From UHGV virus genome UHGV-1779463: a stretch of DNA of 12,399 bases, one strand, 5' to 3'. Source of the DNA: a virus. Position numbers and translations under genes: made by a program. Within the stretch, counting starts at the first letter, position 1; each line of letters opens with the position of its first letter. The notes beneath the pieces were generated by a model. The model did no database searches and was not told the origin of the DNA. It saw nothing but the letters and a program-made list of their open reading frames with translations. Below are positions 1-12,399 of the stretch, one piece after another.

Positions 1-197
1 ATTTACGGTTTTTATGTGGTTTTAGGGATAAACACAAGGATGGTGTCCCCTGCAGGAATCGAAAATTAAACTAAAAGATTGAATTATAACTTATTTGTCT
101 TTCGATTTTGGTGGGTGCCCCAGTAGGTGCCCCCAGGTATTATGGTCAGAAATGCTGGCTTTTAGCAGATGAAACAAGCCTGACGACCTTTCAAAGG

Positions 198-824
198 TTA
201 TTCTGATTTTACGACTGACAGCTCACTTTTTATACGGTAGTAAGTCGCTCGGCTGATTCCTGCTGCCTTCATGATGAGTTCAGGTTTTACTCCTTGCTCC
301 AACATCTCTCTAACGATCTCTCGGGCTTCCTGATTTTTCTCCCTGCCAATGTATATTCCTTCGCTTTTAGCTCGCTCAATGCCTTGCTGTTGGCGTTTAC
401 GACGTGTTTCGTAATCCTGCCGTGCCATTGTGGCAAGGATATCAATCAACATGGCATTTACGGCTCTCAGGATGCCGCTGGTTAGGTCATTGCCTGCCAT
501 CTCGACCATCTGCCAGCTCGTTGGTAAATCCATTGATACGATGATTAACCCTTTTCGGTTGAGCGTATCTTTCAGTTCGACCCATGCGCTATGTTCTAGG
601 CGACTCAGACGATCTATAGCTTCCACTAGCAACAGATCGCCGGACTGGGCTTCAGACAATAGCCGCATAAGCTCTACGCGCTCAAGCTTCGCCCCGCTAG
701 CATTTTCTATATACTCTCCTGCAATCTGCCAGCCTTTTGATTTTGAAAATTCACGTAGGCTGGTAAGTGCTCGATCAGCGTGTTGCCCCTCAGTTGATGC
801 TCGGCAGTAAATTCTAACGTTCAT
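198..824 (-). CDS. Serine recombinase (resolvase/invertase family) with C-terminal HTH
   Basis: 208-aa ORF. N-terminal YCRASTEGQ matches the catalytic-serine motif of small serine recombinases; LLVEAIDRLSR matches the conserved D-R-L-x-R segment; C-terminal GISRATYYRI is HTH-like. Start has a weak GAGA Shine-Dalgarno; stop TAA at 198-200. Confidence 0.9.
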   Translation of the reverse strand: MNVRIYCRASTEGQHADRALTSLREFSKSKGWQIAGEYIENASGAKLERVELMRLLSEAQSGDLLLVEAIDRLSRLEHSAWVELKDTLNRKGLIIVSMDLPTSWQMVEMAGNDLTSGILRAVNAMLIDILATMARQDYETRRKRQQQGIERAKSEGIYIGREKNQEAREIVREMLEQGVKPELIMKAAGISRATYYRIKSELSVVKSE

Positions 825-830
825 TGCATT

Positions 831-1080
831 GTCTCAATAGGGTTGTGAATATAAGTGCAAATGATACATAATGCATTTTGTGTAGTCAAAATGTTCCTAT
901 ACAACCCTATTGAGACTTTGTATCACCTTGTCATTACGGTATACCCTATTGAGAGGGGGATGATAGCTGGTAGTTCCGGTTTACCGTTAATCAGGCATAA
1001 CGCAAATTTGCGTTATGCCTCAAACATCAATGTTTACTCTTCCAACTGCCGCTATCTTGCTGGTTCTTGATAACCCTACT
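831..1080. repeat. Cluster of at least four copies of an AACCCTAYTGAGA-like motif upstream of the serine recombinase
   Basis: 831-846 gtctcaatagggttgt is the exact reverse complement of 901-916 acaaccctattgagac (16 bp). A direct 12-bp copy accctattgaga lies at 943-954 and a degenerate copy aaccctact at 1072-1080. The first copy overlaps the recombinase ribosome-binding region. Confidence 0.7.
993..1020. promoter_or_regulatory. 28-bp perfect palindrome, candidate protein-binding site
   Basis: aggcataacgcaaa / tttgcgttatgcct is exactly self-complementary (14+14 bp). No T-tract follows on either strand, so it is unlikely to be an intrinsic terminator. Confidence 0.45.
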
Positions 1081-1187
1081 CATTGGGGGATAGTTGGAAG
1101 AAATAGCCCGACACCGCTTTACCCGTATGGGATAATCATTGACTGTAGCTGGTGGTCAGCCAATCTTAAACATGGAACTTATTGATT

Positions 1188-1394
1188 ATGGAAAAGACAC
1201 TGAAAGAGTTGCGTGAATGGTTGTTACTATCCCCTGGTTATCCCGAAAGCAATCTCGATCTGGAAAGATGGGGATATGATGACTACGCCATTATCGGTAA
1301 TGTAGGTGATGCTGAGGCTATGCTGGGTTTGCCTCCAGATTGCCTGGAGATGGATAAGTCGCAGATTGTTTTCGACACTAGCGATCTTGAATAG
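1188..1394 (+). CDS. Hypothetical small protein (about 68 aa); start uncertain (ATG 1188, or TTG 1182 as in the ORF track)
   Basis: Protein-like composition (MEKTLKELREWLLL...), unlike the overlapping W/C-rich ORF 1306-1566. Weak ribosome-binding site; G+C similar to the backbone rather than the cargo. Confidence 0.35.
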   Translation: MEKTLKELREWLLLSPGYPESNLDLERWGYDDYAIIGNVGDAEAMLGLPPDCLEMDKSQIVFDTSDLE

Positions 1395-1803
1395 CCTAAA
1401 TCATCAATATACACCCCTCTGGGATGTGTTTACATGGTCGGATAAGACAAAATATGAGTATTCGCATCCAGTTGACTACCCATTTGCATGTTGCTTGACC
1501 ATCTTCAGTAACATATGCAGAAGGGTGCGGGCAACCTTAAGCGAGAAGCGGATCTATCAGTCCTAAAGTGCAAAAGGGCGATCTAGTCACATTGAGACAT
1601 TAATTACATTAGGGTATGTTAAGCCCATTGGCGGGCACTATGATGGGTTCAAGTAGGTAATCATCATTTAATGGACTAGTCCTATATAGCCAGAACACAG
1701 ATAGCAAGTTCAGACACCATCTTTTGTACCTCGAAAACTCAAAAAGGATGGGTCAGTTTTAGTCGGCGACAACAGGTTTAAATAAGCAATTTAAGGGGGG
1801 GAT

Positions 1804-2133
1804 ATGGATTTTTTAACAAGTACTCTGCTATCAGGAATACTCTATGATGGGTTTAAGAACGGCGTTGCAATAACTACAGGTTTCTTGAAAGAAAAGCTAC
1901 ATGGATGGATTGTTGACGATACTTTATTGGAGACTTTAGCTTATAAAGTAAATACTCTTGAGCTTAAGGATTATGGAGAGCATGTTATCGAGCGAAAATT
2001 GAACGAATCATCAGAAATACAGCAAATTTTAAAACTGATTCAGCCTGAGCAAAACACGAATATTGGGTCAGTGACTCAGAATCACAGTGGTTCTGGTGAT
2101 AACATTATTGGAAACAAAAATATATACAAATAG
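1804..2133 (+). CDS. Small protein (109 aa) with a hydrophobic N-terminal segment and a C-terminal motif HSGSGDNIIGNKNIYK shared with the downstream gene
   Basis: Strong Shine-Dalgarno (aaggggggg) 3-5 nt upstream of the ATG. AT-rich like the downstream large ORF. The C-terminal motif is repeated at the N-terminus of ORF 2146-5430 with many synonymous nucleotide differences, implying protein-level conservation. Confidence 0.7.
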   Translation: MDFLTSTLLSGILYDGFKNGVAITTGFLKEKLHGWIVDDTLLETLAYKVNTLELKDYGEHVIERKLNESSEIQQILKLIQPEQNTNIGSVTQNHSGSGDNIIGNKNIYK

Positions 2134-2145
2134 AAGAAATGGACG

Positions 2146-5100
2146 ATGATGGTAGATCAAATACACAGTGGCGTAGGTGACAATATCATAGGTGATAAAT
2201 ACGAATATATAATTCGTAGTATTAAATCTAGGGATCTGCGGACTGTTATAGACAGTATAATGAGAGATATTTGCTATAGAGAATTAGGCAGAGTTCGTGA
2301 AAAGCTAGACGTTCTTAATAATATTCATTCATTAGAAAATGATGTATATCTACTATTGAATGCTTTGAATGTAAAGCTTGAGTTGGTAAAAGGCTCGATA
2401 TCATCATCAAAAAATGATCTTCTAAAATTGCTACAGAACAATGACCTCCCTGGTGATGTTCGTGAGGTCATTACATCTATATTGATCGATTTGGAATCGA
2501 GAACCTCTGAAGAGTTAGCTAAAAAAAGATATTCAGATTTAAAAATAGATGGGTTCTATCTCAAAGAGGTGTTCTTTGAGCGATTAGCCTCAATGGAAGA
2601 GCTATCTAAAAGCTATCATAACACAGAGGTTTATGATTTATCCGAGCAAGAGTTAACTGGATTAGTTCGCGGTGCTTTAAGAGTCCAAGATTTTGTTTTT
2701 GCGTTTGAACTGGCTCAGAATCTGGATAAGTATTATTCATCCAATAATTCAAGGATTCTTCGGCTATACACTGAAACCTGTTTACTCATAACTCGAAACC
2801 AACGTAATCATTATGTTTCACTTAGTAAACAGGAAAAAGATAATGTTGACCGGTTAATAATCCAATTACTAGCTGATATTGATGACGGAAAAGATGATAG
2901 ATATATCGCTGTTTTAACCAATTTGCTTAAACTTACCTATTTTTCAGATAGTCGACTTTATAATTTAGGAAAGTTGCATATTGATAAAGTTAGGGAGATA
3001 GACTCCTTTTCTGCGGAGTATCTAGAGCAGTCCTCAATAGGAATGAGCACTCCCGATATTAAATTTGAATTAGTATCTGATGTTTTGGATTTGGAAAAGT
3101 TTTCATTTCTTATTTTTGCTATTGAGAATAATCAGATGAAAGCTAAAGACGTAAATAACTGGATAGACAATGGAGGGATAATTGAAACAGGAGATGATTA
3201 TATTAATTCCTTCTTGAACTTGTACCTTAGGGCGCTAGTATGTTCGGTTGACGATAAGAATGAAATCCAACTGCTGGATAAAAAAGCGCAAGATTTTTTA
3301 GAATTAGATTCTAAAAAGTTTATGCTAATAAACCCTGCGAACATATTAAACTTATGCGATAAATTTATTTTATGTAATTTACCATTGAACGCGGTTAATT
3401 ATCTCACCCCATTGTTATCTGATGAAGCTTGGGTATCTCCGATTTTCGAATGTTATCTTAACGCTCTATTTCTCAGTGATAAGATTGATTTATTTTTAAA
3501 TAAAATAAAGCACTTAGAACCATGCGATAAAACAGAGCTAATTTATTTAAGAGAAGCCCAAGTGTACGACCGATTAGATGAATATGAGCTATCAATAAAA
3601 TCGATCAGATTTGCAATTGAAATTTCACCAAACAACCCTTATTCCTGGTACTTATTGCTGCACACATCAAGAAAAAATGGGGGGGATGCGCAATTTCTTA
3701 AAGAAATTGTTTTTGAGATCCCAGAAGTTATTTTTTCTACCTACGATGAGTCAAAGATCACATTAGTTAATGAAATAGCGACTTATATTGATATACACAT
3801 TGCGGAGAGAGTGCTTGTTGATTGGTTTGTCCAAAACCCAGTAAAAGTGGCAAAGCCTTTGACCCAGATTCACGCAAACTCATTGATAAATAGCCAAAAA
3901 GTTAATAGTAATCCACTTGTCCCTAATAAGTGTGGGGATGGTATTACATATTCTGATGGGTTTGAAACATTTACCCGAATTCTTGTACGTGACGTTGAGG
4001 CTAGTCATCCGTGCTTGTTGGAAATAGAGTCACCACTTGGACAGATTCTCGAGAATATGCAGGAAGGAGATTGTTCTGGTGACTTTACAATGATTAAGCG
4101 TGTGCCTCCTTACGTCGCAGTATTTAGGCAGGCTGTGGAGCTTCGCAGTAAAGGTAACGATGGTACTGATGTTTTCAGACAATTTTCTCTACCTCCTCAT
4201 GAAGAGGAATTCATTCCTTATTTTGAGAATATTCTAAAACGATATTCTACGAAAGATAAAGAAAGGGATGCAGTATTGCATACCCCCAATATACCTTTAA
4301 CGATGAAAGGCAATTTTACGGATCCTACAGACCCTGTAAGAGGGGCTATAACACATTTAACGTCAATTACATCAACCAAATATTTGGAGTTATTCAATAG
4401 TGGAGAAGAAACACCAAATAAGGTAATTATTGATGTGTATACGGCTGTTTATTTCTCATTAATGGGTTTTTCTTCAGCTGTAGTAGATTCGAATATAGAA
4501 ATAATTGTATGTAAATATACAAAGCAAGTATTGGAAGGGTGGATTGAAAATATTCTAAGAGAAGACTACATGTCTATAGGTGTATCTGATAAAGGACTTT
4601 ATAGAGTCACATCTGAAGATATTCGAAGGGATTCATGTGATTTTATTCATAATCTCCAGATATTACTTGAATTTGTAACAGTAGAACCGCTGAAACCAGC
4701 AGATACACCAGAGTTATTAGTTAAAGTAAGAGATTTGGTTGATTGGGCTGTTTACTCTACCTTCCAGCTTTCTATAGCAAATAGTATCCCATTGCTTAGC
4801 ATTGACCATTTGATGTGTGAATTAGCGTATAGTTCAGAGTATCCAACGGCAAATATGAATTCCTTTGTCATGAGGATTTTAAACTCTTTATCTTTGCCGG
4901 AAAGAAAAAAAAGCATTCAAACTAACTTATCTTCGGGTACACCTGTTCCAATTTTGTATGATGATATATTATATCTCAGCCGCTCAGCAGAAATTTCTGA
5001 TACATACTTAGTATTCAAGTTTATGGAAAAATATGGAGAAACCATTTCTGCAACAGGATCTTCTCTAAACTACCTAACTGCAATTGTGAGAAACGTAACA

Positions 5101-5430
5101 GTGATGGCTTGCATAGATGGAGCTATTTTAGCTGGTGGTAGAGCACACAATCCACGGTATGATGGATATGTTGAGCATGTTTTTAATTATTGCTGTCGCT
5201 CTGCAATAGTTAATCTGGATGGTGAAACTGCTGAACAAAGATTAGCATTACTAATCTATAATGTAATAGATATGCCTCGAAGAGTTCGTAAATACTTGGA
5301 ATTGATATCATTGCTGACTACTGAGTTCACAATAGGACATTTTCTGGATATTAAAGCATGTAATGAGAGCCTGGTTGCTTGTCAGAATGGTAAAAAAATA
5401 GATGAGCAAGGGAGTATTGAAGCAAGTTAA
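2146..5430 (+). CDS. Large uncharacterised protein (1094 aa), AT-rich, with TPR-like helical repeats and no P-loop; candidate sensor/effector of a defence-type system
   Basis: A 3.3-kb ORF with no antisense ORF of 60 aa or more. N-terminus IHSGVGDNIIGDKYEY repeats the C-terminal motif of the upstream ORF. TPR-like segment around ELIYLREAQVYDRLDEYELSIKSIRFAIEISPNNPYSWYLLL. No GxxxxGK[ST] found on manual scan. Weak ribosome-binding site; starts 12 nt after the upstream stop in the same frame. Confidence 0.9.
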   Translation: MMVDQIHSGVGDNIIGDKYEYIIRSIKSRDLRTVIDSIMRDICYRELGRVREKLDVLNNIHSLENDVYLLLNALNVKLELVKGSISSSKNDLLKLLQNNDLPGDVREVITSILIDLESRTSEELAKKRYSDLKIDGFYLKEVFFERLASMEELSKSYHNTEVYDLSEQELTGLVRGALRVQDFVFAFELAQNLDKYYSSNNSRILRLYTETCLLITRNQRNHYVSLSKQEKDNVDRLIIQLLADIDDGKDDRYIAVLTNLLKLTYFSDSRLYNLGKLHIDKVREIDSFSAEYLEQSSIGMSTPDIKFELVSDVLDLEKFSFLIFAIENNQMKAKDVNNWIDNGGIIETGDDYINSFLNLYLRALVCSVDDKNEIQLLDKKAQDFLELDSKKFMLINPANILNLCDKFILCNLPLNAVNYLTPLLSDEAWVSPIFECYLNALFLSDKIDLFLNKIKHLEPCDKTELIYLREAQVYDRLDEYELSIKSIRFAIEISPNNPYSWYLLLHTSRKNGGDAQFLKEIVFEIPEVIFSTYDESKITLVNEIATYIDIHIAERVLVDWFVQNPVKVAKPLTQIHANSLINSQKVNSNPLVPNKCGDGITYSDGFETFTRILVRDVEASHPCLLEIESPLGQILENMQEGDCSGDFTMIKRVPPYVAVFRQAVELRSKGNDGTDVFRQFSLPPHEEEFIPYFENILKRYSTKDKERDAVLHTPNIPLTMKGNFTDPTDPVRGAITHLTSITSTKYLELFNSGEETPNKVIIDVYTAVYFSLMGFSSAVVDSNIEIIVCKYTKQVLEGWIENILREDYMSIGVSDKGLYRVTSEDIRRDSCDFIHNLQILLEFVTVEPLKPADTPELLVKVRDLVDWAVYSTFQLSIANSIPLLSIDHLMCELAYSSEYPTANMNSFVMRILNSLSLPERKKSIQTNLSSGTPVPILYDDILYLSRSAEISDTYLVFKFMEKYGETISATGSSLNYLTAIVRNVTVMACIDGAILAGGRAHNPRYDGYVEHVFNYCCRSAIVNLDGETAEQRLALLIYNVIDMPRRVRKYLELISLLTTEFTIGHFLDIKACNESLVACQNGKKIDEQGSIEAS

Positions 5431-5506
5431 TCATTGTCAGATGAACTATTATAGTGATTGGATTTAGAACAATCAAAAATATAAATTGGTACAAGCTGTG
5501 TCCCTT

Positions 5507-5537
5507 AACCAATGATGTGACCTGCTCGTCATTGGTT
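5507..5537 (+). terminator. Hairpin downstream of the large ORF (9-bp stem aaccaatga/tcattggtt, 13-nt loop); weak terminator candidate
   Basis: Exact 9-bp inverted repeat about 80 bp after the stop at 5430, followed by tttattcc. The stem is AT-rich and the loop long, so confidence is low. Confidence 0.25.
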
Positions 5538-6020
5538 TATTCCTAACGTCCGCTTTAGGCACAGCCGACTGCCAGGTACTGCCAGGTAAGGTATCAATAT
5601 CGCCCGTCTGACCTGAGGATCATCATTGGATTTATTTTTGGGATGGTTAAGTAACATGTTAAAGGAAACTAACTCAGGTACAATTATGCAAAAAATTGCT
5701 TCTATGTGGTTTAAATTCACGACTGAGATTTCTACGTGAATTCAACCTAAGAAATACCGGTAAAATCGCTTATAAAGTTGATGTTATGTTGATGGTTTTT
5801 TTCTGGGGTTTTGATTGCCAGATATCTCTATTGGATTGTTTTTTATGTAATTAATGATGAGCTTAAGCGATGCCTGCTAACGTCAACACATTCTTATAAA
5901 GTGATTAATTTCTATAAGTACTTTTTCTAAAAAATTGATTTTTACGGATGGATGCCCATCAATGGAAAATCATTTTTTTCTAAGACTTTGATCTTTTATT
6001 GATGGTGTTAGTTGGGACTC

Positions 6021-6052
6021 CGGTCATCGAGCGCGATGCGCTCTTCTGACCG
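6021..6052. other. GC-rich interrupted stem-loop
   Basis: cggtca-tc-gagcgc-gat-gcgctc-ttc-tgaccg: outer 6-bp and inner 6-bp stems are exact reverse complements. Followed on the plus strand by tttcaatg. Lies in the convergent intergenic region, orientation ambiguous. Confidence 0.3.
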
Positions 6053-6183
6053 TTTCAATGGATAGGTTCGCCTTCTTGCGCCTCTCGCTGCGTTTGCCGC
6101 GCTCCGCGCTTTTGGCTGTTTGGCAGGCATATTTCTCTTATTATTGGTCGTTTTTTGCTCTGCCTTGTCACGATCTGTCACTA

Positions 6184-7236
6184 CTAGTAGTAATGGTCAT
6201 AACCTCCGCTTTCTCTTCTGGCTCTGGATGCTCTCACTCGTGCTTTTCTTAACATCCTTAACAGCGGGTGGGTTTGTACTTTGTTCGAGTTTATTATCTG
6301 TGAGGATAGTAACTCCCTACGCTCTGTCTCTGCCTCTTTGGTGACCGCTATCACTGATAAGTCCCAATCGTGCTTGCTAATTAACGGTGCTTCGAATGGG
6401 GCGATTGGTGAGCGATTTATGTCTTGCCGTTTTAATGTACGCTGTATCTGCCGCTTAGATTTGTAGTTGTCTTTCCTTGATGCCTGAACGGCTTTTAGTA
6501 TGCGTCTTACAGCATGAAAGCCAGTGACAGAAAGTGTTTCTTTTTTTATCTCATGCCGCGCCCAGCCATTCGAATAACCCCAAACGCTGGCATCTGACCA
6601 ATCATATAGGCTCTTGCTCGCCTCTCTATTAAAGTCATTTAACTTAGTTTCGGGCTTTGCCATGTAATCAATTTGTTTACCTATATGCTTGGTAGGCTCT
6701 GAATATTGCTGACCTTTCAAATCTAGATCCCACTGAGGAGGAACATTTGATGGGATTGCATTGTTTGCCAGTGTTACCCATTTGCTGACAATTTTGCCAG
6801 CTTGCCCATTAATGCTTCTTTCGTTCACCATGATTATTGCGTGTACATGCGGCTCTGACTGGTGTTGAGCCCACTCCATGACGTAAACCCACTGATTGCC
6901 TTTCGAAGTCAACCATCTGGTAAGTGCCTTTAACGCTTTGTTGAATTTCTCTGGCGTTGTTCCCTTAACGGGTCTGAAGGTAAAGGAGTAGGGGATACCA
7001 CTAGTTGATTCGACATCCAGAGTAAACAAAGCTCGCCTCATTGTACGCCATTTCTTCTTTGTCCAGGCTGGTGGTATGCAGTGGTTAGCCTTTGATGATT
7101 GGCGTTTATTCTCTGCCTTTAATTCATTACGTTTGTGCGTAACTGATTTCACATAAGCTAATGTGCGACCATTGATGTGATTGATTACGGCTTGTGATTT
7201 TGTGGATAGACTCGCGTCTTTATCGTATAATTCCAT
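6184..7236 (-). CDS. HUH-motif replication-initiator-like protein (rolling-circle Rep / inovirus Gp2-like)
   Basis: 350-aa ORF with three motifs in canonical Rep order and spacing: ALFTLDV (motif I-like), EPHVHAIIMV (His-hydrophobic-His) and IDYMAKP (YxxK catalytic tyrosine). No clear Shine-Dalgarno. Confidence 0.75.
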   Translation of the reverse strand: MELYDKDASLSTKSQAVINHINGRTLAYVKSVTHKRNELKAENKRQSSKANHCIPPAWTKKKWRTMRRALFTLDVESTSGIPYSFTFRPVKGTTPEKFNKALKALTRWLTSKGNQWVYVMEWAQHQSEPHVHAIIMVNERSINGQAGKIVSKWVTLANNAIPSNVPPQWDLDLKGQQYSEPTKHIGKQIDYMAKPETKLNDFNREASKSLYDWSDASVWGYSNGWARHEIKKETLSVTGFHAVRRILKAVQASRKDNYKSKRQIQRTLKRQDINRSPIAPFEAPLISKHDWDLSVIAVTKEAETERRELLSSQIINSNKVQTHPLLRMLRKARVRASRARRESGGYDHYY

Positions 7237-7265
7237 GTGTAAAGTTCATATATTTCAATTGCTTC

Positions 7266-7292
7266 AAAGCCGACTCTCGCAAAGTCGGCTTT
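7266..7292. other. 10-bp perfect inverted repeat hairpin (aaagccgact ... agtcggcttt) between the 128-aa ORF and the Rep-like gene
   Basis: Exact reverse-complement arms with a 7-nt loop. On the plus strand it is followed by ctgctttg; on the minus strand it sits between a stop at 7305 and a start at 7236. Could be a terminator/attenuator or operator. Confidence 0.35.
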
Positions 7293-7304
7293 CTGCTTTG
7301 TCAA

Positions 7305-7691
7305 TCACAGGTATTTGGTTTCAATACCCTTGTAAACAGTTCTAAGCGTGTCTTCAGGCACTTTACCCACCAGCCCACGCAACAACGACAACGTTATGTT
7401 TACCTTACGCAATGTCTTTACATATCTGGCGTTCGTCCTCCAGATCTTCAATGTTTCGTCTTTATCGCTGTGGTATGCTTCTAAATTGCGTTCTGTGACG
7501 TGATACGCCCCTGTTTTAAACTGCTCAACAGGAATTCCCCAATCGTTGCGTAACAGCGTTAAAACGCGACTACGTTCGTGATTTCCGGCTTTCCTTAATA
7601 TGTCGTCAAACTCTTTTGGGGTAAGCTTCCTGCCACTTAGTAGGATATCGCGTATATTCGCGGCGACCTGAGAGCGTGTAAGAGTGCTCAT
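7305..7691 (-). CDS. Hypothetical protein (128 aa)
   Basis: Strong Shine-Dalgarno (ggggggacgaa before the ATG); 4-nt overlap with the upstream HTH gene, suggesting translational coupling. No recognisable motif. Confidence 0.6.
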   Translation of the reverse strand: MSTLTRSQVAANIRDILLSGRKLTPKEFDDILRKAGNHERSRVLTLLRNDWGIPVEQFKTGAYHVTERNLEAYHSDKDETLKIWRTNARYVKTLRKVNITLSLLRGLVGKVPEDTLRTVYKGIETKYL

Positions 7692-7882
7692 TTTCGTCCC
7701 CCCAGAAATCTGTCGGCAAATTGATCAAGGCAGGAGGCAAGCCACACCCGGCGCTTGCGACCATTGATGGTCTGATTTATATAGGGAGGAAAGCTTCGGA
7801 TATATCGCTTTAACTGATAGAAGCGTGACAGACAGACGCCAAGATATTCTGCTGCGTCTTTAGCGGTCAGGTAATTAATCAT
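7688..7882 (-). CDS. Small helix-turn-helix DNA-binding protein (excisionase/HTH_17-like)
   Basis: N-terminal LTAKDAAEYLGV followed by a basic GRKRRVW segment is the typical pattern of excisionase-type HTH proteins. Shine-Dalgarno AGGGA 5 nt upstream. Confidence 0.65.
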   Translation of the reverse strand: MINYLTAKDAAEYLGVCLSRFYQLKRYIRSFPPYINQTINGRKRRVWLASCLDQFADRFLGGRK

Positions 7883-7963
7883 TTTATTCCCTTACTGTTG
7901 TACCAAAATGCAATACGGAGGAGACTTCCTGTCTCCCCAAATTACTCTACAATTTTTGTGCGA

Positions 7964-8155
7964 TTAAATCAGATCTATTACTAAGTAATCATCGCCAGAG
8001 GCAATGCCGATAGCTTTTCCACCGCTGGTGGATTTCACATCATAAACCCTGGTGCTGGTGCTCACCTTTTGTGGCTCTGATCTAATCAGTGCCGCGAAGG
8101 TTTCAAAATCAACATGGGTTACGTTCAGCTTTTGATTGGTAGGTTTCAACTGCAT
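7964..8155 (-). CDS. Hypothetical small protein (63 aa)
   Basis: ORF co-oriented within the element backbone; weak ribosome-binding site; no recognisable motif. Confidence 0.4.
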   Translation of the reverse strand: MQLKPTNQKLNVTHVDFETFAALIRSEPQKVSTSTRVYDVKSTSGGKAIGIASGDDYLVIDLI

Positions 8156-8203
8156 TCTTAATACCTAATAACGTATTGTTTGTATCCTGTTTGTTTCTGT
8201 TCT

Positions 8204-8395
8204 TTAGTTGCTACGCGATTCGGCTATACGTTGATCGATCCAGTCATCGATCTCGCTTTCAATAAAAGCTATTGCGCGAGCACCAATCTTGACTGATTGG
8301 GGGAATTGTCCTCGGCTCATCAGAGCATATACCCACGCCTTGCTATAGCCAGTGCGTTTCAAAACCTCAGATAGCCGAATCAGCGACTTTTTCAT
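8204..8395 (-). CDS. alpA: AlpA-family phage transcriptional regulator
   Basis: 63 aa. IRLSEVLKRTGYSKAWVYALMSRGQFPQSVKIGARAIAFIESEIDDWI matches the AlpA pattern (HTH, then P-x-K-I/L-G-x-R-A-x-A-W-x-E-S-E-I-D/E-x-W). Shine-Dalgarno GAGGT 5 nt upstream. Confidence 0.85.
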   Translation of the reverse strand: MKKSLIRLSEVLKRTGYSKAWVYALMSRGQFPQSVKIGARAIAFIESEIDDWIDQRIAESRSN

Positions 8396-8462
8396 ATCTA
8401 CCTCGTAATACGTTGCTTGACTATGTGAGATAGTAAATCATTGTTTTTTTAAGTTTTCTGTG

Positions 8463-8595
8463 AATTTGGAGAAAAAATTTTTGGGAATAGAATTACCCCA
8501 AATTGGGCGTTATTTTTTAGTTCTAACGCACAATTTGGGAACATCCTTCCTTTATTTTGGACGCTTTTTGGTTGCTTTGTTCTTAAATTTGGGGG
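8463..8595. repeat. Iterated AATTTGG(G) motifs in the alpA-upstream region
   Basis: Exact aatttgg at 8463-8469, 8532-8538 and 8586-8592; an inverted copy within cccaaattggg (8498-8507); variants at about 8478 and 8554. Some copies extend into the 3' end of the 251-aa ORF. Confidence 0.45.
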
Positions 8596-9307
8596 CGTAC
8601 TTATCCAAAGCGTTCGTTAGCAATCTCCGAAATGTATCTGGGTGGGTATCGCTGTCTTCATCGTTCCCGAATATTATGTTGTTTTCTATTACTTGGGCAC
8701 TAACCCTATTGATACTAAGGTTTCCTCCACTATGGAAATCTTTGCTTGATTCAAATAAGGCAATCGCCATTCCGGCGATCATCTTTAAAGCCGTATCTTT
8801 TCCTCTCCAGTTTTGTTCTCTTTCTACTTTTTTTGACAGTGCTCCAATTTCTGGTTCGTTATCTGGAACATTCATATCCAGTTCTGGAAAGAAGTTCACA
8901 ACCTCGGATCGCTTGAAATAAAACGAATCGTAAGACCCATACCAATCATCCTCATCATCGTGATATAAAAAGTCTTCTCCTTTCCTAACGTTGAAAGTCC
9001 CTTCTTCCCCCGGTATCGGGCTCTCCCTGTATTCATGCCCCATAGCCAGAAGACCTAAAAACTCCACACACTGCTTTTCAAAGTCTTCATTTGTCGTAAA
9101 ACCAGATACCCAATCGAACTGATAAAAGCCCAGCCCCCCTAAAGTATCTGGTTTAGTCTTGCTCAATCTGTAGTTACTTAAGATAGCGGCAGCTATCATT
9201 CTTTCATTTTCATTGTTTAGTCTTGCCAGTTCGCTGATCAGATTACCAAACCAGATTTTATCTTCTGACTCGTTATAAAACGCATCTAGTCCTGTCATCT
9301 TAGTCAC
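8552..9307 (-). CDS. Hypothetical protein (251 aa), translationally coupled to the integrase
   Basis: Long ORF. Probable GTG start at 9305-9307 with Shine-Dalgarno gaaggagaa, overlapping the integrase stop by 8 nt (alternative ATG at 9296-9298). Acidic, aromatic-rich sequence with no recognisable motif. Confidence 0.65.
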   Translation of the reverse strand: MTKMTGLDAFYNESEDKIWFGNLISELARLNNENERMIAAAILSNYRLSKTKPDTLGGLGFYQFDWVSGFTTNEDFEKQCVEFLGLLAMGHEYRESPIPGEEGTFNVRKGEDFLYHDDEDDWYGSYDSFYFKRSEVVNFFPELDMNVPDNEPEIGALSKKVEREQNWRGKDTALKMIAGMAIALFESSKDFHSGGNLSINRVSAQVIENNIIFGNDEDSDTHPDTFRRLLTNALDKYAPKFKNKATKKRPK

Positions 9308-10622
9308 GGCGTGTTCTCCTTCCGAACTCGTAAGGGCTTATGTGTATTTCTCGATTGGCGTCCAGATAATCTGCCCACCATTGAAGCATTAGTTTGCGCT
9401 CTTCTAAGTAATCAGCCTTGTGCTTGTAGGCTCTTTTAACGTCTTTATATTCTTTGTGGCTCATCTGGCGCTCTACTGCGTCCTCCTGCCACAAACCGGA
9501 CTCCATCAGGGAACTACAGGCTGTGGCACGGAATCCATGTCCAGTTACGTCCTCTTGCGTGTTATAGCCCATTAAGCGTAATGCCTTGTTTACCGTGTTT
9601 TCACTCATCACGCCTTTGGTGTTTCTTTCATTCGGAAACACAACATCGTAGCTTCCGCTTAGTTCTCTCAACTGCTTTACAATAGAAACAGCCTGACGGC
9701 TAAGAAGCACGATATGTTCGTCTTTTCCCGTCTTTGTGCCACGGGTGGAAAACCTCACACCATCGATAGGCTCTCTTTTTTTAGGGATAATCCACTCAGC
9801 CCGATCAAGGTCAAACTCTTTCCAACGGGCAAACCTTAACTCGCTTGAACGAACAAAGGTCAACATGGTTAGCTCAATGGCAAGGCGGGTAAGAGGATTA
9901 CCTTTAAAGCTGCCCAATCGAGTGAAAAAGTCTGGTAAATCTCTGGGATGTAGTGCGGCATGATGCTTAGTTTCATATTGCATTAACCGGACATCGAGAT
10001 CATTCGTGATGATTTCTGTCTTAATGCCGCTCAGACGGGCGCTATGTATGATGTCCTTAACTCGTTGTTTAAGTCGGTTGGCTGTATCGTGTTTCCCGGC
10101 GTCATCTACCTTCTTAAACAAAGGTAAAATTGTCATCGCCTCCAGTTTGCGAATATCCGAAGTGCCAATGTGAGGGAAAATATACATTTCAAGGCTTCTA
10201 AGTACGCGTTTTCGGTGGGCTTCGTTCCACATCTGGTGGCTTTCAACCCATTGACGTCCTATTGTCTCAAAAGTGAATGCACCTTTTTCTTCTGCTTTTG
10301 CTGCTCTTTGCTCTGCTTTGGGATCTATCCCCTTGACTAACAACTTTTTGGCGTTGTCTCGTTTTTCTCTGGCGTCTTGTAAGCTAATGGTTGGATAAGC
10401 CAGTTTGCTAGCCGGGTTTAAGGTGATACCGATCGCCGCAACATTGATGATGGCGTTCTGTGCGCTGGTTGGATTTGCCAGTGCTGTTTTAGCCAGGTAA
10501 TCGTTTTTCTGGAAATACTGAATTGCAAACTGGCTTTCCTTAGCCCATGTCACCGTCTGTTCAGTCAATGCTCCGCAGAATAACTGCTCCTGCTGTTTAA
10601 CGAATTCAACGATATTGCTCAT
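9300..10622 (-). CDS. int: Tyrosine recombinase / phage integrase (P4-like family) with a non-canonical N-terminal ~75 aa
   Basis: C-terminal catalytic signatures are present: VRSSELR (box I Arg), HGFRATACS (H-x-x-R), and RAYKHKADYLEERKLMLQWWADYLD (catalytic Tyr and the MxQ-WADYLD hallmark). The N-terminal arm-binding region is replaced by unrelated sequence. Shine-Dalgarno GGAG 8 nt upstream; ATGA overlap with the upstream ORF. Confidence 0.9.
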   Translation of the reverse strand: MSNIVEFVKQQEQLFCGALTEQTVTWAKESQFAIQYFQKNDYLAKTALANPTSAQNAIINVAAIGITLNPASKLAYPTISLQDAREKRDNAKKLLVKGIDPKAEQRAAKAEEKGAFTFETIGRQWVESHQMWNEAHRKRVLRSLEMYIFPHIGTSDIRKLEAMTILPLFKKVDDAGKHDTANRLKQRVKDIIHSARLSGIKTEIITNDLDVRLMQYETKHHAALHPRDLPDFFTRLGSFKGNPLTRLAIELTMLTFVRSSELRFARWKEFDLDRAEWIIPKKREPIDGVRFSTRGTKTGKDEHIVLLSRQAVSIVKQLRELSGSYDVVFPNERNTKGVMSENTVNKALRLMGYNTQEDVTGHGFRATACSSLMESGLWQEDAVERQMSHKEYKDVKRAYKHKADYLEERKLMLQWWADYLDANREIHISPYEFGRRTRRD

Positions 10623-10930
10623 GCAGCTTCTCCAAAAATGTGTCTGCGTTTGAATATTGCGAAGGCATATTCAGCCTTAACTCTTTCGGTTATTGCATCC
10701 CAGAACCATTCAGCGGCTTTTTCCTGATAGTTACAGTCATCATCTTCCAGCCAGTCGATAGCGTCCTTAGTGTGTTCATCTGGTTTATATGAGCGAAGCA
10801 TTTCGCTTATTGGGTCGCAACGTTTGCAGAGGCGATCAACTTCACTGTTGATTCGTTCGTAATCTTCATCAGTAAAACTTGCGATTATTTGCGATATTTC
10901 ACGCTTATCATTCAGAGTCAGAATCATCAT
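10619..10930 (-). CDS. Hypothetical phage protein (103 aa)
   Basis: Strong Shine-Dalgarno (acaggagaaag before the ATG); its TGA stop overlaps the integrase-ORF ATG. Acidic protein of unknown function. Confidence 0.6.
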   Translation of the reverse strand: MMILTLNDKREISQIIASFTDEDYERINSEVDRLCKRCDPISEMLRSYKPDEHTKDAIDWLEDDDCNYQEKAAEWFWDAITERVKAEYAFAIFKRRHIFGEAA

Positions 10931-11011
10931 CTTTCTCCTGTTCTTTGTGCTGATTGAGCATTTTGTTCATCTGACGAATGAATTCTTCGTCTGACCAGTT
11001 ATCTGTAAAAC

Positions 11012-11182
11012 TCATGGACGGCCTTGTTGTTTCAAAATATCCCAAAGCTTTTCGAGCAAACTTTTCATTCTTGGTTGTTTAAAGTCTGCTCCGGTTAAAA
11101 TATTTTTTCGTGAATGCTGTACCGATAAAATCGGGTTGAAAGGGCGAACCGATGCCGCCCCTGCAATAGCGAACTGTTGCAT
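11012..11182 (-). CDS. Hypothetical small protein (56 aa from the internal ATG; the ORF track extends it to 11287)
   Basis: The internal ATG at 11180-11182 is preceded by a strong Shine-Dalgarno (GGAG about 7 nt upstream). The longer 91-aa form begins with a Cys-rich, hydrophobic stretch and has no ribosome-binding site. Confidence 0.45.
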   Translation of the reverse strand: MQQFAIAGAASVRPFNPILSVQHSRKNILTGADFKQPRMKSLLEKLWDILKQQGRP

Positions 11183-11365
11183 AGGATGCTCCTTCTGTTT
11201 GATTGCATAACGAAAACGCCTCGAGTGAAGCGTTATTGGTATGCATATAAAAAGGCCCTCACACTGGAGGGCAAAGAAGATTTCCAATAATCAGAACAAG
11301 TCGGCTCCTGTTTAGTTACGAGCGACATTGCTCACATAGCAGACTCGCAAATCTACTATAGGTGC

Positions 11366-11524
11366 TTATTCGCATCGCATGACAACATCAAATTTTTCGA
11401 GATTACTTTGTCGCAACAATCCCTCTTCTACGCGGTCAGCTTTTCTATAATTATCAAATTCGAAATGTTTAATTACTTCTTTCGTTTCTCGCTCTATAAC
11501 TTCAACGATGTATTTCTTATTCAT
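11366..11524 (-). CDS. Hypothetical small protein (52 aa), not in the supplied ORF track
   Basis: Hand translation gives MNKKYIVEVIERETKEVIKHFEFDNYRKADRVEEGLLRQSNLEKFDVVMRCE. Shine-Dalgarno AGGTGA 6 nt upstream; its ATG overlaps the stop of the upstream gene by one nucleotide. Confidence 0.4.
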   Translation of the reverse strand: MNKKYIVEVIERETKEVIKHFEFDNYRKADRVEEGLLRQSNLEKFDVVMRCE

Positions 11525-11820
11525 TACTCATCACCTATGGCTTTTCTGATTGCTGCGAGACCTTTATTAACAGCTCCATACCATTCTGGATATGTTGTCG
11601 TTGTTCTATTTTTGGTTTGCTTAAGTAATAACTGAAGTGCTTCGAGAAGGTCAGGTGCTGCCGCTATTAGATTGGCATCTTCAATGCATTGAACTTCCTC
11701 ACAGATTGCAATATACGAACGCCAGCCTGCGCCATTTTCAAGTGAGTCTGCCTGGATTATTTTAATCTCATCGTCATCCATCATTATTTCCCACTTACCT
11801 TCAGTACCTTTAAATTCCAT
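11524..11820 (-). CDS. Small phage protein (about 98 aa) with an AAPDLLEAL motif, reminiscent of Ead/Ea22-like early proteins
   Basis: The ATG at 11818-11820 has a GAGG Shine-Dalgarno 6 nt upstream; the ORF-track extension to 11940 overlaps the upstream gene and passes through a terminator-like hairpin. The family name is recalled from the motif, not verified. Confidence 0.55.
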   Translation of the reverse strand: MEFKGTEGKWEIMMDDDEIKIIQADSLENGAGWRSYIAICEEVQCIEDANLIAAAPDLLEALQLLLKQTKNRTTTTYPEWYGAVNKGLAAIRKAIGDE

Positions 11821-11840
11821 GTTAGCCTCTGTTGTTAGTG

Positions 11841-11868
11841 CCAAAAATAAAGGCCGACTATGCGGCCT
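11841..11868 (-). terminator. Intrinsic-terminator-like hairpin after the 156-aa gene
   Basis: Minus strand reads AGGCCG-CATAGT-CGGCCT followed by TTATTTTTGG: a 6-bp GC-rich stem, 6-nt loop and T-tract. The stem overlaps the TAG stop at 11867-11869. Confidence 0.45.
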
Positions 11869-12337
11869 AGTAGAATACCCAATTTTCTGTTTCTTGGTTG
11901 TGTCCAAAGTTATATTCAATATCTGGTGTTGATGTATCAATATTCTTCATCCCATCAACAAGAGTTGATACAACAGCCAAATCTTGTTTGATTCTCATTA
12001 AATGGTATTTCTTCCGGCGCAATAAACTCTCAATGGCAAGTTTCTTCGTTGGGAATGCAAAAGATCTTTCTGCATTTTTTGCTACTTTCTTAATTGCATA
12101 TCTATTTCTCCTTTGTTTCCATTCCCGTAACCACTGATTTGGTGCTGGTTTAAAATCAACAATCCAATGCGCAGGAACCAACCATGCATAATGCTCTGTC
12201 TGATGAAAAGCTATATATTGAAGTGCGAATATTTTGATTCCATCTTCTTCAACTGTCGCTTGGAATCTCCAGAAAACAGGCATTCCATCATGTTCAGTTT
12301 CTGATTCAGGAAAAGGTACGCTCCATGATTTTGTCAT
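11867..12337 (-). CDS. Hypothetical phage protein (156 aa)
   Basis: Strong Shine-Dalgarno (GAGGTGA 3-4 nt before the ATG); protein-like composition; followed by a terminator-like hairpin. Confidence 0.6.
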   Translation of the reverse strand: MTKSWSVPFPESETEHDGMPVFWRFQATVEEDGIKIFALQYIAFHQTEHYAWLVPAHWIVDFKPAPNQWLREWKQRRNRYAIKKVAKNAERSFAFPTKKLAIESLLRRKKYHLMRIKQDLAVVSTLVDGMKNIDTSTPDIEYNFGHNQETENWVFY

Positions 12338-12399
12338 ATCTCACCTCAAATAAGTGGTTTGCTGCCTAATTTCATTTTCTGGCGACCAACACAAGTCAT

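Follow-up and report, generated by a model that had tools for sequence, protein, structure and literature searches.

The closest described relative of the gene pair analyzed here is the Bab/Agp system of Escherichia coli ECOR25 (Ibarlosa et al., 10.1101/2024.11.07.622273; PDB 9H9V). For this protein pair it has been shown that Agp (TPR, GreA/B-C, and PIN domains) is the sensor: when T5-like phages or certain Drexlerviridae infect the cell, the BASS11 motif at its N-terminus takes an amyloid fold, which templates the matching motif at the C-terminus of Bab; the converted Bab reaches the cell periphery, and membrane damage and cell death follow ahead of phage production (10.1101/2024.11.07.622273). 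Plaque, growth, and microscopy data document a phage-specific abortive infection dependent on the amyloid motifs; functional interchangeability with HET-S has been stated, function-abolishing mutations lie at Bab G11 and N100 and at Agp N12, S628, L634, and D762, and the Agp PIN mutant is unstable (10.1101/2024.11.07.622273). A second system, GAPS6, has been disclosed in Vibrio, where it is carried by a Gamma-Mobile-Trio island; both genes are required, and its anti-phage activity has been demonstrated in E. coli (Mahata et al., 10.1101/2023.03.28.534373). Fungal HET-S/NWD2 and bacterial Bell/NLR BASS pairs likewise carry a short amyloid motif on the effector C-terminus and on the sensor N-terminus, and an effector with a small helical membrane-targeting domain; the point of difference is the motif class, which in Bab/Agp is BASS11. 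Lastly, the predicted TPR-GreAB-C-PIN (TGP) conflict systems (Kaur, Burroughs, Iyer, Aravind 2020, as cited in 10.1101/2024.11.07.622273) have the same domain architecture as Agp, with RNA-polymerase sensing and transcript cleavage as hypotheses, whereas in Agp the effector is coupled via the amyloid motif.

The window, i.e., the whole stretch of 12,399 nucleotides of the UHGV virus genome UHGV-1779463 under investigation, harbors two plus-strand genes with these features. The first one (bab/gapS6a, 1804..2133) encodes a 109-aa predicted cell-death effector with a Bell/HetE-N helical domain (aa 1 to about 85) and a C-terminal BASS11 amyloid motif (aa 86-108, nt 2059-2127). The second one (agp/gapS6b, 2146..5430) encodes a 1094-aa predicted sensor with an N-terminal BASS11 motif (aa 3-26, nt 2152-2223), a TPR-like alpha-solenoid (aa ~20-560), and the two domains expected of a Bab/Agp sensor, i.e., a GreA/B C-terminal-like domain (aa ~589-669, nt 3910-4152) and a PIN nuclease domain (aa 761-895, nt 4426-4830). 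The two lengths are those published for Bab and Agp (10.1101/2024.11.07.622273). The genes are adjacent, lie on the same strand, and are separated by just 12 nt; the same adjacent, co-oriented arrangement occurs in 11 of 12 loci of other taxa, with gaps of 2-15 nt.

The earlier note on this DNA had likened the block to the horizontally acquired cargo of defence islands. Both products of the pair score above the curated NCBIfam cut-offs, GapS6a reaching 120.3 bits with NF047935 (cut-off 90; residues 1-105 of 109) and GapS6b reaching 1063.7 bits with NF047936 (cut-off 850; residues 5-1073). By these cut-offs, the pair belongs to the same families as Vibrio GAPS6, with the same gene order and spacing, the Vibrio-type GapS6b homologues being ~60-64% identical to the window protein. 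Pfam assigns HetE-N to Bab (114 bits) and PIN-TPR-GreABC to Agp, an architecture that is also backed by fold comparison. The TPR repeats are weakly supported by their sequence (Pfam TPR_8 at 16.5, under the cut-off of 25.7; designed CTPR profile match with E = 7.6e-5); the predicted model of Agp 1-560 consists of helical hairpin repeats (pLDDT 88.6), and its best Foldseek matches are TPR proteins (IFT-A, TTC7B, APC/C subunits, and OGT TPR). Residues 1-84 of Bab are 100% identical to PDB 9H9V ("Babybass"). All the 17 residues named by Ibarlosa et al. (10.1101/2024.11.07.622273) are found in the pair, namely 13/13 in Bab (D2, G11, Y14, D15, Y57, T85, I87, G88, S89, V90, Q92, D99, and N100) and four in Agp, where N12, S628, L634, and D762 of the paper correspond, with a constant +1 offset, to N13, S629, L635, and D763, invariant across 20 homologues. 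Agp is thus assigned to the ECOR25 protein (OWC60848.1) on the basis of its length, these four residues, and its family, short of a full alignment. The window protein carries E748 in place of the K748 of the commonest Escherichia allele, a one-residue difference, and it does not differ in kind from the ECOR25 system, with which it shares residues, lengths, and BASS11 placement. As judged from its sequence, then, the 109-aa/1094-aa pair is a bona fide anti-phage defence system, GapS6a/GapS6b or, equivalently, Bab/Agp of E. coli ECOR25. Neither protein was matched in a search of PADLOC-DB v2.0.0; this database dates from 2023 and is older than GAPS6, so that the blank is no evidence against a defence role.

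The two partners also share their motif. The C-terminus of Bab (VTQNHSGSGDNIIGNKNIY) aligns with the N-terminus of Agp (VDQIHSGVGDNIIGDKYEY) with a local score of 61, versus 18.5 +/- 4 in shuffles (maximum 36); elsewhere in Agp, the Bab motif scores 25 at best. Residues 1-15 of Agp are disordered in the predicted model. In the pairs of Vibrio, Shewanella, Moritella, and Marinomonas, the BASS11 motifs are conserved and vary in concert; as examples, the same Gly is lost from both partners in locus L015, and "HYGSGDNV-NK" appears in both partners of loci L019 and L023. Across 11 loci of other taxa, partner motifs match each other better than non-partner motifs (6/10,000 permutations).

The pair is carried by an element that is integrated at tRNA-Arg, with a 26-bp att repeat at either end. 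The left one, GGATGGTGTCCCCTGCAGGAATCGAA (38..63), is a copy of the 3' end of the tRNA-Arg gene argW and marks the island end; in record L011, the same 26-mer is located at 8038-8063 (corresponding to window 38-63) and at 16152-16177, 8,114 nt apart, the right copy overlapping the tRNA-Arg 3' end. Positions 1-63 of the window match the tRNA-Arg flank of island-free strains. The island, whose size is 8-10.5 kb, lies between the core genes dsdC and yfdC at tRNA-Arg-CCT. In L001 and L011, dsdC immediately precedes the left edge of the window, and in L004-L008 and L011 the island is followed on its right side by tRNA-Arg and yfdC. The locus corresponds to hotspot #11 (Hochhauser et al. 2023, as defined in their supplementary file 2), which is also the published location of ECOR25 Bab/Agp; neither ECOR25 nor PDC-S06 appears in the supplementary files of that work. 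The direct carrier in the window is a separate small element in tandem with a lambdoid prophage, to which it is fused here, and it appears to be immobilized. ARAGORN detected a tRNA neither in the window nor in L001, since the tRNA gene is located on the far side of the tandem prophage and the window contains only the 26-bp att copy.

From the att repeat, the island order is serine recombinase, small ORF, cargo slot, AT-rich non-coding region, rolling-circle Rep, AlpA, and integrase. The serine recombinase of the conserved left arm (198..824, minus strand; resolvase/invertase type; Pfam Resolvase 83 bits, PHROG DNA invertase 140 bits) is 95-100% identical across all the island variants. It is followed by a 68-aa backbone ORF (1188..1394, plus strand, 45.4% G+C; annotated in RefSeq; phrog_35119, E = 1.3e-7) with homologues at the equal position in L002, L003, and L004, divergent between island lineages. 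The right arm begins with a rolling-circle-type replication protein (HUH Rep; 6184..7236, minus strand), which was recognized by Pfam REP_ORF2-G2P (PF23343; 29.7 bits, cut-off 27.8), by phrog_30534 (494 bits), and by its RefSeq name. The remaining backbone (7305..10397, minus strand), 96-100% identical to that of other island variants, comprises a 128-aa protein, a MerR-like HTH, a 63-aa protein, an AlpA-type HTH/excisionase (8204-8395), a 251-aa gene (8552-9307) overlapping the integrase stop by 8 nt, and a tyrosine integrase with the 5' end missing (9300-10397); the island homology ends at 10397.

This layout is similar to that of the PICMI satellites of Vibrionaceae (Barcia-Cruz et al. 2024, PMC10803314) and of the defence hotspots of P4-like satellites: the island has in common with these satellites an integrase, an integrase-overlapping gene, AlpA, small genes, a replication gene, a distal variable defence slot, the small size, and the absence of capsid genes. 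However, PICMI need int, alpA, and a DUF3987/DUF5906 primase and integrate next to fis, whereas the island has int, an AlpA-type HTH, and an HUH Rep, with no primase found, and resides in a tRNA-Arg 3' end; the serine recombinase at its distal end is a further feature unlike PICMI. By analogy, the island may at most work like PICMI, without being a member of them. Literature searches on this island type (argW with defence and integrase; AlpA with satellite and rolling-circle) returned nothing.

As for base composition, the region 1570-6050 had been described as an AT-rich block within a backbone of about 50% G+C, and both the computed profile and the segmentation do reveal a step. The region so delimited has 35.4% G+C, against 44.4% on the left (1-1569) and 42.7% on the right (6051-12399), and the best two-breakpoint segmentation places the low-GC segment at 1770/1800-6000, with 34.8% inside and 43.1% outside. 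The log-likelihood gain (39.7-39.9) was matched by 0/300 shuffles under each of three null models, i.e., mononucleotides (maximum 9.2), 100-nt blocks (maximum 18.7), and 500-nt blocks (maximum 32.3). While the segment is real, its limits have to be redrawn: the left change-point, at about 1800, coincides with the start codon of the 109-aa gene and the right one is at 6000, the segment 1570-1800 (about 42% G+C) being devoid of AT-richness. Similarly, the G+C within 2146-5430 is low, but not confined to the 28-35% first given, 300-nt windows within 2101-5550 spanning 30% to 43% (with a local rise at 3900-4350) and the 1094-aa gene averaging 34.9%. The backbone, on the other hand, had been overestimated, the values being 47.7% for the recombinase, 45.8% for the integrase, and 43.5% for the rep-to-int stretch; it is itself slightly below the typical E. 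coli composition, and the contrast is 35% versus 43-48%. GC3 is 0.318 in the 109-aa gene and 0.286 in the 1094-aa gene, and 0.41-0.50 in the recombinase, rep, integrase, and small backbone genes. The host is not AT-rich throughout, the chromosomal flanks of the island in related records having 44.7-48.4% G+C.

The comparison of related elements revealed that the slot is indeed a variable cargo hotspot, harboring at least seven different cargo types, i.e., GAPS6 and six unrelated gene sets in other strains. Among 5,426 complete E. coli genomes, the island backbone is present in 543 and GAPS6 in 22. The six cargo types that were counted (317, 148, 22, 11, 7, and 5 genomes) represent ~94% of the island occurrences, and all the slot cargoes have 31.4-41.5% G+C, versus 43-44% for the backbone. 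Two of the seven types (GAPS6 and PDC-S06) are recognized as defence or candidate defence; the other five are nameless in PADLOC 2023 and NCBIfam 2026, and they encode a 470-aa protein (317 genomes, O157:H7 type), proteins of 821 and 330 aa (148 genomes), an HNH_5 protein of 395 aa (11 genomes), GTPase-like proteins of 268 and 152 aa (5 genomes), and a ParA-like protein of 354 aa. Co-occurrence of the pair with the backbone is limited to E. coli and E. albertii; outside Escherichia, the pair occurs without it. These distributions bear out the earlier proposal of horizontally acquired cargo on an integrative element. Outside Escherichia, the Agp closest to the window protein shares just 72% identity with it and a donor was not found, so that a "recent import" is undatable. 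A tblastn search of Agp against 50,697 phage records gave no match, and one against plasmids gave only distant relatives (22-29% identity); thus, the lineage is not phage- or plasmid-borne in those collections.

In all the hosts examined, the G+C of the pair stays within 35-41%, and the diversity of the pair is centered on marine Gammaproteobacteria, which points to a low-GC mobile gene pool; such a pool might turn over faster than its members drift towards host composition. It is also possible, even if rather doubtful, that AT-richness is kept by selection, with H-NS-type xenogeneic silencing or poor codon usage holding a lethal module low. The pair retains its low G+C even where the flanks are 41-51% (L013, L016, and the window), GC3 is the lowest of its codon positions (0.29), and plasmid cloning of Bab/Agp failed, induced expression being lethal (10.1101/2024.11.07.622273), all of which would fit selection. 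However, the pair is not below its flanks in AT-rich hosts (40.4% versus 38% in the Vibrio MAG L014; 35.5% versus 33-37% in Moritella L017), as would be expected if the pair were simply inherited from a low-GC gene pool, and the other slot cargoes, which are not known to be toxic, are AT-rich as well. Selection and the cargo explanation are compatible and can coexist; as an extra benefit, low G+C could keep a module that is toxic when over-expressed weakly expressed or silenced by H-NS.

The non-coding regions bear on the extent of the cargo. The 5' region (1395..1803, plus strand, 42.1% G+C, hence not AT-rich), presumably containing the native promoter, resembles neither the other island variants nor the loci of other genera. 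The 3' region (5431..5674, plus strand, 39.8% G+C) is unalignable with other island variants and has no match in other loci; it contains a hairpin with a 9-bp stem (5507-5537) and a tandem ACTGCCAGGT x2 (5568-5587). Blastn of 1395-1803, 5431-5674, and a 99-nt insertion against all the other loci gave no matches, and the extent of the mobile module beyond the genes is thus untraceable. A promoter/terminator scan of 800-6300 revealed no enrichment over shuffles and no terminator after agp, and a search of the window against Rfam (gathering thresholds) gave no hits, so that no known RNA family is present in the spacers.

The following region, 5675..6183, downstream of rep, aligns with four other island variants bearing unrelated cargo (five variants in all). 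Its first ~335 nt (5675-6009) are the most AT-rich stretch (30.7% G+C, with 52.9% in 6010-6183) and carry five positionally conserved TTGA[C/T]G copies; since they are conserved irrespective of the cargo, they belong to the backbone and not to the imported cargo. The long AT-rich spacer that had been ascribed to the cargo must therefore be divided, only 5431-5674 being cargo-specific. The adjacency to rep and the repeats suggest that 5675-6183 is probably an origin or regulatory region; the C-to-T differences among the repeats are not decay, the copies being in register and L005 alternating likewise at other copies. It is accordingly improbable that the whole block 1570-6050, spacer included, is a single imported cassette, as the earlier note implied. 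The low-GC segment is continuous from 1800 to 6000, and identity to other islands drops to 78% at 5801-6000, where part of the sequence may have arrived from a diverged island lineage along with the cargo, but the alignment of 5675-6183 with its five repeats, and the composition of 1570-1800, speak against it.

The data are thus explained, very probably, by a composite structure: an exchanged Bab/Agp cargo module (about 1395-5674) and an AT-rich backbone segment (5675-6009), both on an argW island at hotspot #11. The former would be a self-contained, horizontally exchanged module coding for a two-gene abortive-infection system of the GAPS6 family; the latter would be an intrinsically AT-rich, conserved non-coding part of the carrier, adjoining rep. 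The island would offer one exchangeable slot, between the serine-recombinase arm and the rep/ori arm, to strain-specific, mostly AT-rich gene sets. Agp might sense the phage takeover via its GreA/B-like RNA-polymerase-binding domain, a hypothesis in the literature, and its PIN domain might degrade transcripts.

It is highly improbable that the pair functions mainly in addiction, as a toxin-antitoxin-like module that stabilizes the island by means of a VapC-like PIN toxin, and not as an anti-phage system. The closest solved folds to the PIN domain of Agp are indeed VapC toxins, the system is toxic on over-expression, and the island appears to be immobilized in this window; nevertheless, abortive infection by Bab/Agp is phage-specific and dependent on amyloid motifs (10.1101/2024.11.07.622273), the Vibrio homologue protects E. 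coli against coliphages (10.1101/2023.03.28.534373), and an antitoxin-like partner is absent, Bab being a membrane-targeting effector with a solved structure. Ordinary compositional heterogeneity without a biological boundary can practically be dismissed: the surrounding 300-nt windows do vary between 37% and 49%, with ~38-40% G+C in the prophage tail on the right, but no shuffle reaches the step even with intact 500-nt blocks, and the segment boundaries coincide with comparative breakpoints.

The composite reading implies that the AT-rich block is a published, already known defence system at its published E. coli hotspot, and that its low G+C is what would be expected of defence cargo of this kind. 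A GC dip alone, however, over-calls cargo, the most AT-rich 335 nt here being conserved backbone. On sequence grounds, GAPS6 and Bab/Agp are two names for one family, which is stated in neither preprint, and in neither does the family name used by the other occur; the Bab/Agp amyloid mechanism therefore probably applies to Vibrio GAPS6 too. The compact integrative carrier with one exchangeable slot is a modest by-product of the analysis, and its five nameless cargo types are cheap candidates for defence screening. It could tentatively be proposed that the carrier represents an undescribed PICMI/PICI-like "hitcher" family of Escherichia, with a slot reserved for a single defence system at any one time; in that case, each of the five unnamed cargoes would be a new anti-phage system.

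A sliding-window profile of the window, which is Escherichia coli chromosomal DNA, revealed 30-37% G+C over most of 1650-6000 and 42-49% elsewhere. The earlier note had described 1570-6050 as an AT-rich cargo block embedded in a higher-GC backbone; the G+C content of this block is 35.4%, and that of its flanks is 44.4% and 42.7%. The maximum-likelihood two-breakpoint fit placed the low segment at 1770/1800-6000 (34.8% inside vs 43.1% outside), with a likelihood gain of 39.7 that was reached in 0/300 shuffles under each of three nulls (mononucleotide, 100-nt blocks, and 500-nt blocks, 300 shuffles each, with maximum gains of 9.2, 18.7, and 32.3, respectively). GC3 is 0.32 in the 109-aa gene and 0.29 in the 1094-aa gene, vs 0.41-0.50 in the backbone genes. 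Since the gain was never matched by the shuffles and GC3 is low, the step is real, and ordinary heterogeneity is ruled out as its source. The block inside a higher-GC backbone is thus confirmed; however, its left edge lies about 230 nt to the right of 1570, and the recombinase and integrase genes, estimated at about 50% G+C, actually have 47.7% and 45.8%, the backbone level being 43-48%. The host is not AT-rich throughout, since the chromosomal flanks of related records have 44.7-48.4% G+C. The sole G+C bump within agp (40-43% at 3900-4350) overlaps the GreA/B-C-like domain (aa ~589-669, nt 3910-4152), which is the most conserved stretch of Agp.

The two ORFs of the segment, of 109 aa (1804-2133) and 1094 aa (2146-5430), match the NCBIfam families GapS6a (120.3 bits, cut-off 90) and GapS6b (1063.7 bits, cut-off 850), and Pfam recognizes HetE-N in the former protein and the "PIN domain associated with the TPR-GreAB-C-PIN system" in the latter. 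GAPS6 is one of four Vibrio "GMT-encoded anti-phage systems" that shield E. coli from coliphages (10.1101/2023.03.28.534373). The same architecture, Bab (109 aa) plus Agp (1094 aa), has been reported in E. coli ECOR25 in "Amyloid signaling in antiphage defense" (10.1101/2024.11.07.622273), and neither of these two papers gives the family name used by the other. All the Bab residues numbered in the latter (13/13) were found at the same positions in the window protein; Agp N12, S628, L634, and D762 (paper numbering) are all present with a constant +1 offset and are invariant in 20 homologues. Window Bab is 100% identical to PDB 9H9V ("Babybass") over residues 1-84, and its C-terminus resembles the Agp N-terminus (local score 61 vs 18.5 +/- 4 for shuffles). 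Ibarlosa et al. place Bab/Agp at hotspot #11 (10.1101/2024.11.07.622273), i.e., the dsdC-yfdC interval with tRNA-Arg-CCT of Hochhauser et al. 2023 (PMC10121019, supplementary file 2). The gene pair belongs to a system that has already been described and studied by experiment, at a hotspot that has been described too, and the finding is therefore already known. The only amino acid difference in the pair between the window and both E. coli E2 (L001) and E. albertii is at Agp position 748 (nt 4387-4389), Glu in the window and Lys in the other two, in a low-confidence model linker between the GreA/B-C and PIN domains.

It has been reported (10.1101/2024.11.07.622273) that chromosomal Bab/Agp, under its native promoter, uses abortive infection to stop T5, some Markadamsvirinae, and four phages of the Drexlerviridae; that synthetic peptides of BASS11, the short amyloid motif at the Bab C-terminus and the Agp N-terminus, form amyloid fibrils; that with the beta-breakers Bab N100P and Agp N12P the system is neither toxic nor protective; that T5 infection sets off Agp-dependent motif assembly; that Bab-GFP relocates to the periphery of the cell, with changes in the membranes; that defence is lost when the GreA/B-C domain is mutated; and that fungal HET-S and Bab are interchangeable. 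The window allele has every residue and domain implicated by these data. Agp would sense via RNA polymerase, and its PIN domain would cleave RNA. The BASS11 motifs co-vary between Bab and Agp partners across genera (permutation test, 6/10,000): the same Gly is absent from both partners of locus L015, and "HYGSGDNV-NK" occurs in both partners of L019 and of L023. Some Agp homologues, in L018 and L021 (Marinomonas) and L017 (Moritella), have an N-terminal extension that seems to hold two successive BASS11-like copies (e.g., MVEQDDTFIGDNVVGGNNATQSHTGSGD...), and the partner Bab has one.

The AlphaFold2 model of Agp 540-900 contains two confident domains. The model of residues 1-560 (pLDDT 88.6, pTM 0.80) shows an alpha-solenoid built from helical hairpins, TPR proteins being its best matches; disorder is limited to residues 1-15, i.e., the BASS11 motif. 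On the basis of these models and their structural matches, the predicted TPR, GreA/B-C, PIN architecture of Agp is confirmed.

The closest Agp relatives outside Escherichia (72% identity) are in Yersinia and Serratia, and the bulk of the family, with 45-64% identity, belongs to Vibrio, Aliivibrio, Shewanella, Marinomonas, and marine metagenomes. A wider comparison of 12 loci from one-genome-per-species contigs disclosed that bab and agp are adjacent in 11/12 of these other-taxa loci, that the G+C content of the pair is 35-41% whatever the flanks (33% to 51%), and that the island backbone lies alongside the pair only in E. albertii, with 99.4% DNA identity to the window. No relatives are encoded in the phage records searched, and plasmids have distant ones only. 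Given the adjacency, the 35-41% G+C, the usual lack of the backbone, and the lack of phage relatives, the pair is a module complete in itself, drawn from a pool of mobile low-GC genes; no donor emerged from the relatives found. The E. albertii locus (NBRC 107761) comprises the entire island, GAPS6 cargo included, 99.4% identical in DNA over 9.3 kb, and this likeness of the sequences indicates a recent transfer of island and cargo between Escherichia species.

The gene order of the island, read from related complete genomes, is dsdC (or csc sucrose genes), serine recombinase, small ORF, variable genes, ~0.5-0.9 kb of non-coding DNA, rolling-circle Rep, 128-aa gene, MerR-like HTH, 63-aa gene, AlpA-type HTH, 251-aa gene, tyrosine integrase, tRNA-Arg, and yfdC. 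The island is bounded by a 26-bp direct repeat, GGATGGTGTCCCCTGCAGGAATCGAA, one copy of which is the tRNA-Arg 3' end and the other of which lies at 38-63. Its layout (int, integrase-overlapping gene, alpA, replication gene, defence slot) is similar to that of the PICMI satellites (PMC10803314), but two defining features of the latter, the primase and integration at fis, are absent. The integrase stop codon lies in an 8-nt overlap with the 251-aa gene (8552-9307, - strand), which in this respect resembles the PICMI "integrase overlapping gene", essential for excision in PICMI; the 251-aa gene contains a second variable patch (8401-9000), with 64-82% identity to other lineages, no match in L004, and ~100% identity in the DNA on either side. 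In the window, a 440-aa ORF (9300-10622, - strand) joins a RecT-like N-terminus (aa 3-76, phrog_148) in-frame to the island integrase, which matches from aa 82 and lacks about its first 60 residues. In the DNA, island homology stops at 10397 and lambdoid-prophage recT homology begins at 10394; compared with an L002-like arrangement, ~5 kb have been deleted at this junction, and torI has gone along with the hybrid att site and the 5' end of the integrase. Strain E100341 (L011), for one, carries an intact island. The junction was found in 0/5,426 complete genomes, and in the window strain both the island and the prophage beside it are probably immobilised.

On the left of the slot, DNA similarity among variants ends near 1000. 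The small ORF at 1188-1394 (phrog_35119) is a diverged homologue of the small ORFs of L002-L004, and the cargo-specific stretch begins at ~1395, its first 400 nt having 42% G+C and thus not being AT-rich. A ~99-nt lineage-specific insertion (1001-1098) starts within a perfect hairpin, GGCATAACGCAAATTTGCGTTATGCC (994-1019), and in L002, L004, and L005 a hairpin of almost the same sequence, with a T-run after it (GATAACGCAATTTTGCGTTATGCTTGTTTTTT), is located across the cargo, before rep; the hairpin could be a terminator marking the slot borders or a recombination scar. On the right, every variant aligns from ~5675 up to rep. For this reason, the long AT-rich spacer that had been attributed to the cargo is such only in part: 5431-5674 (~245 nt, 39.8% G+C) is cargo tail, whereas the next ~335 nt (5675-6009), in which the window reaches its highest AT content (30.7% G+C), belong by this alignment to the backbone. 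In them TTGA[C/T]G occurs five times at conserved positions, three times direct and twice inverted; most simply, they are a putative origin or regulatory region for the adjoining Rep. T occurs in 4/5 copies of the GAPS6-bearing lineage and C in other lineages, while L005 alternates C/T at the two inverted copies; these might be Rep-binding repeats whose specificity differs by lineage. Other islands are 94% identical to the window at 6001-6200 but only 78% at 5801-6000, and this drop beside the slot suggests that cargo may be exchanged by recombination within the slot-flanking regions, between diverged island lineages.

The same backbone, 96-100% identical away from the slot, harbors differing cargo. 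Among 5,426 genomes, 317 have the 470-aa protein (O157:H7-type, degraded island; L003:4091-5503), 148 the 821-aa plus 330-aa pair (L002, 4928-8382; L008-L010), 22 Bab/Agp (window and L001), 11 the 395-aa HNH_5 protein (L007; L011, 9606-10793), seven the PDC-S06 ATPase (L004; PADLOC, 1189 bits), and five the GTPase-like 268-aa plus 152-aa pair (L005:6956-8233); the seventh cargo is a 354-aa ParA-like ATPase (L006:5368-6432). The backbone is present in 543 genomes, and the six counted types (ParA-like left out) account for 510 of them (~94%), assuming that every cargo match sits in this island. Each cargo is chromosomal, single-copy, and >=99% identical within its type, except PDC-S06, three of whose seven matches have only 80-90% identity. 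In 7/7 cases the cargo genes have 31.4-41.5% G+C, vs 43-44% across rep-int and 47.5-48% in the recombinase. Comparison with related elements thus bears out the variable cargo hotspot, with seven cargoes on one backbone, and the GAPS6 genes, the exchangeable slot, and the low-GC mobile pool support the proposal of horizontally acquired defence cargo. Two of the seven cargoes are recognized as defence or candidate defence; therefore, a variable slot is demonstrated, while a defence-dedicated one is plausible but unproven. The other five (821+330, 470, 268+152, 354, and 395 aa) gave no match, or generic domains only, in PADLOC 2023 and NCBIfam 2026, and all are below the backbone G+C. The literature search retrieved no paper on the argW-type island. 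By their position, the five unnamed cargoes are candidate undescribed defence systems, and what novelty remains is that of the carrier island and of these cargoes.
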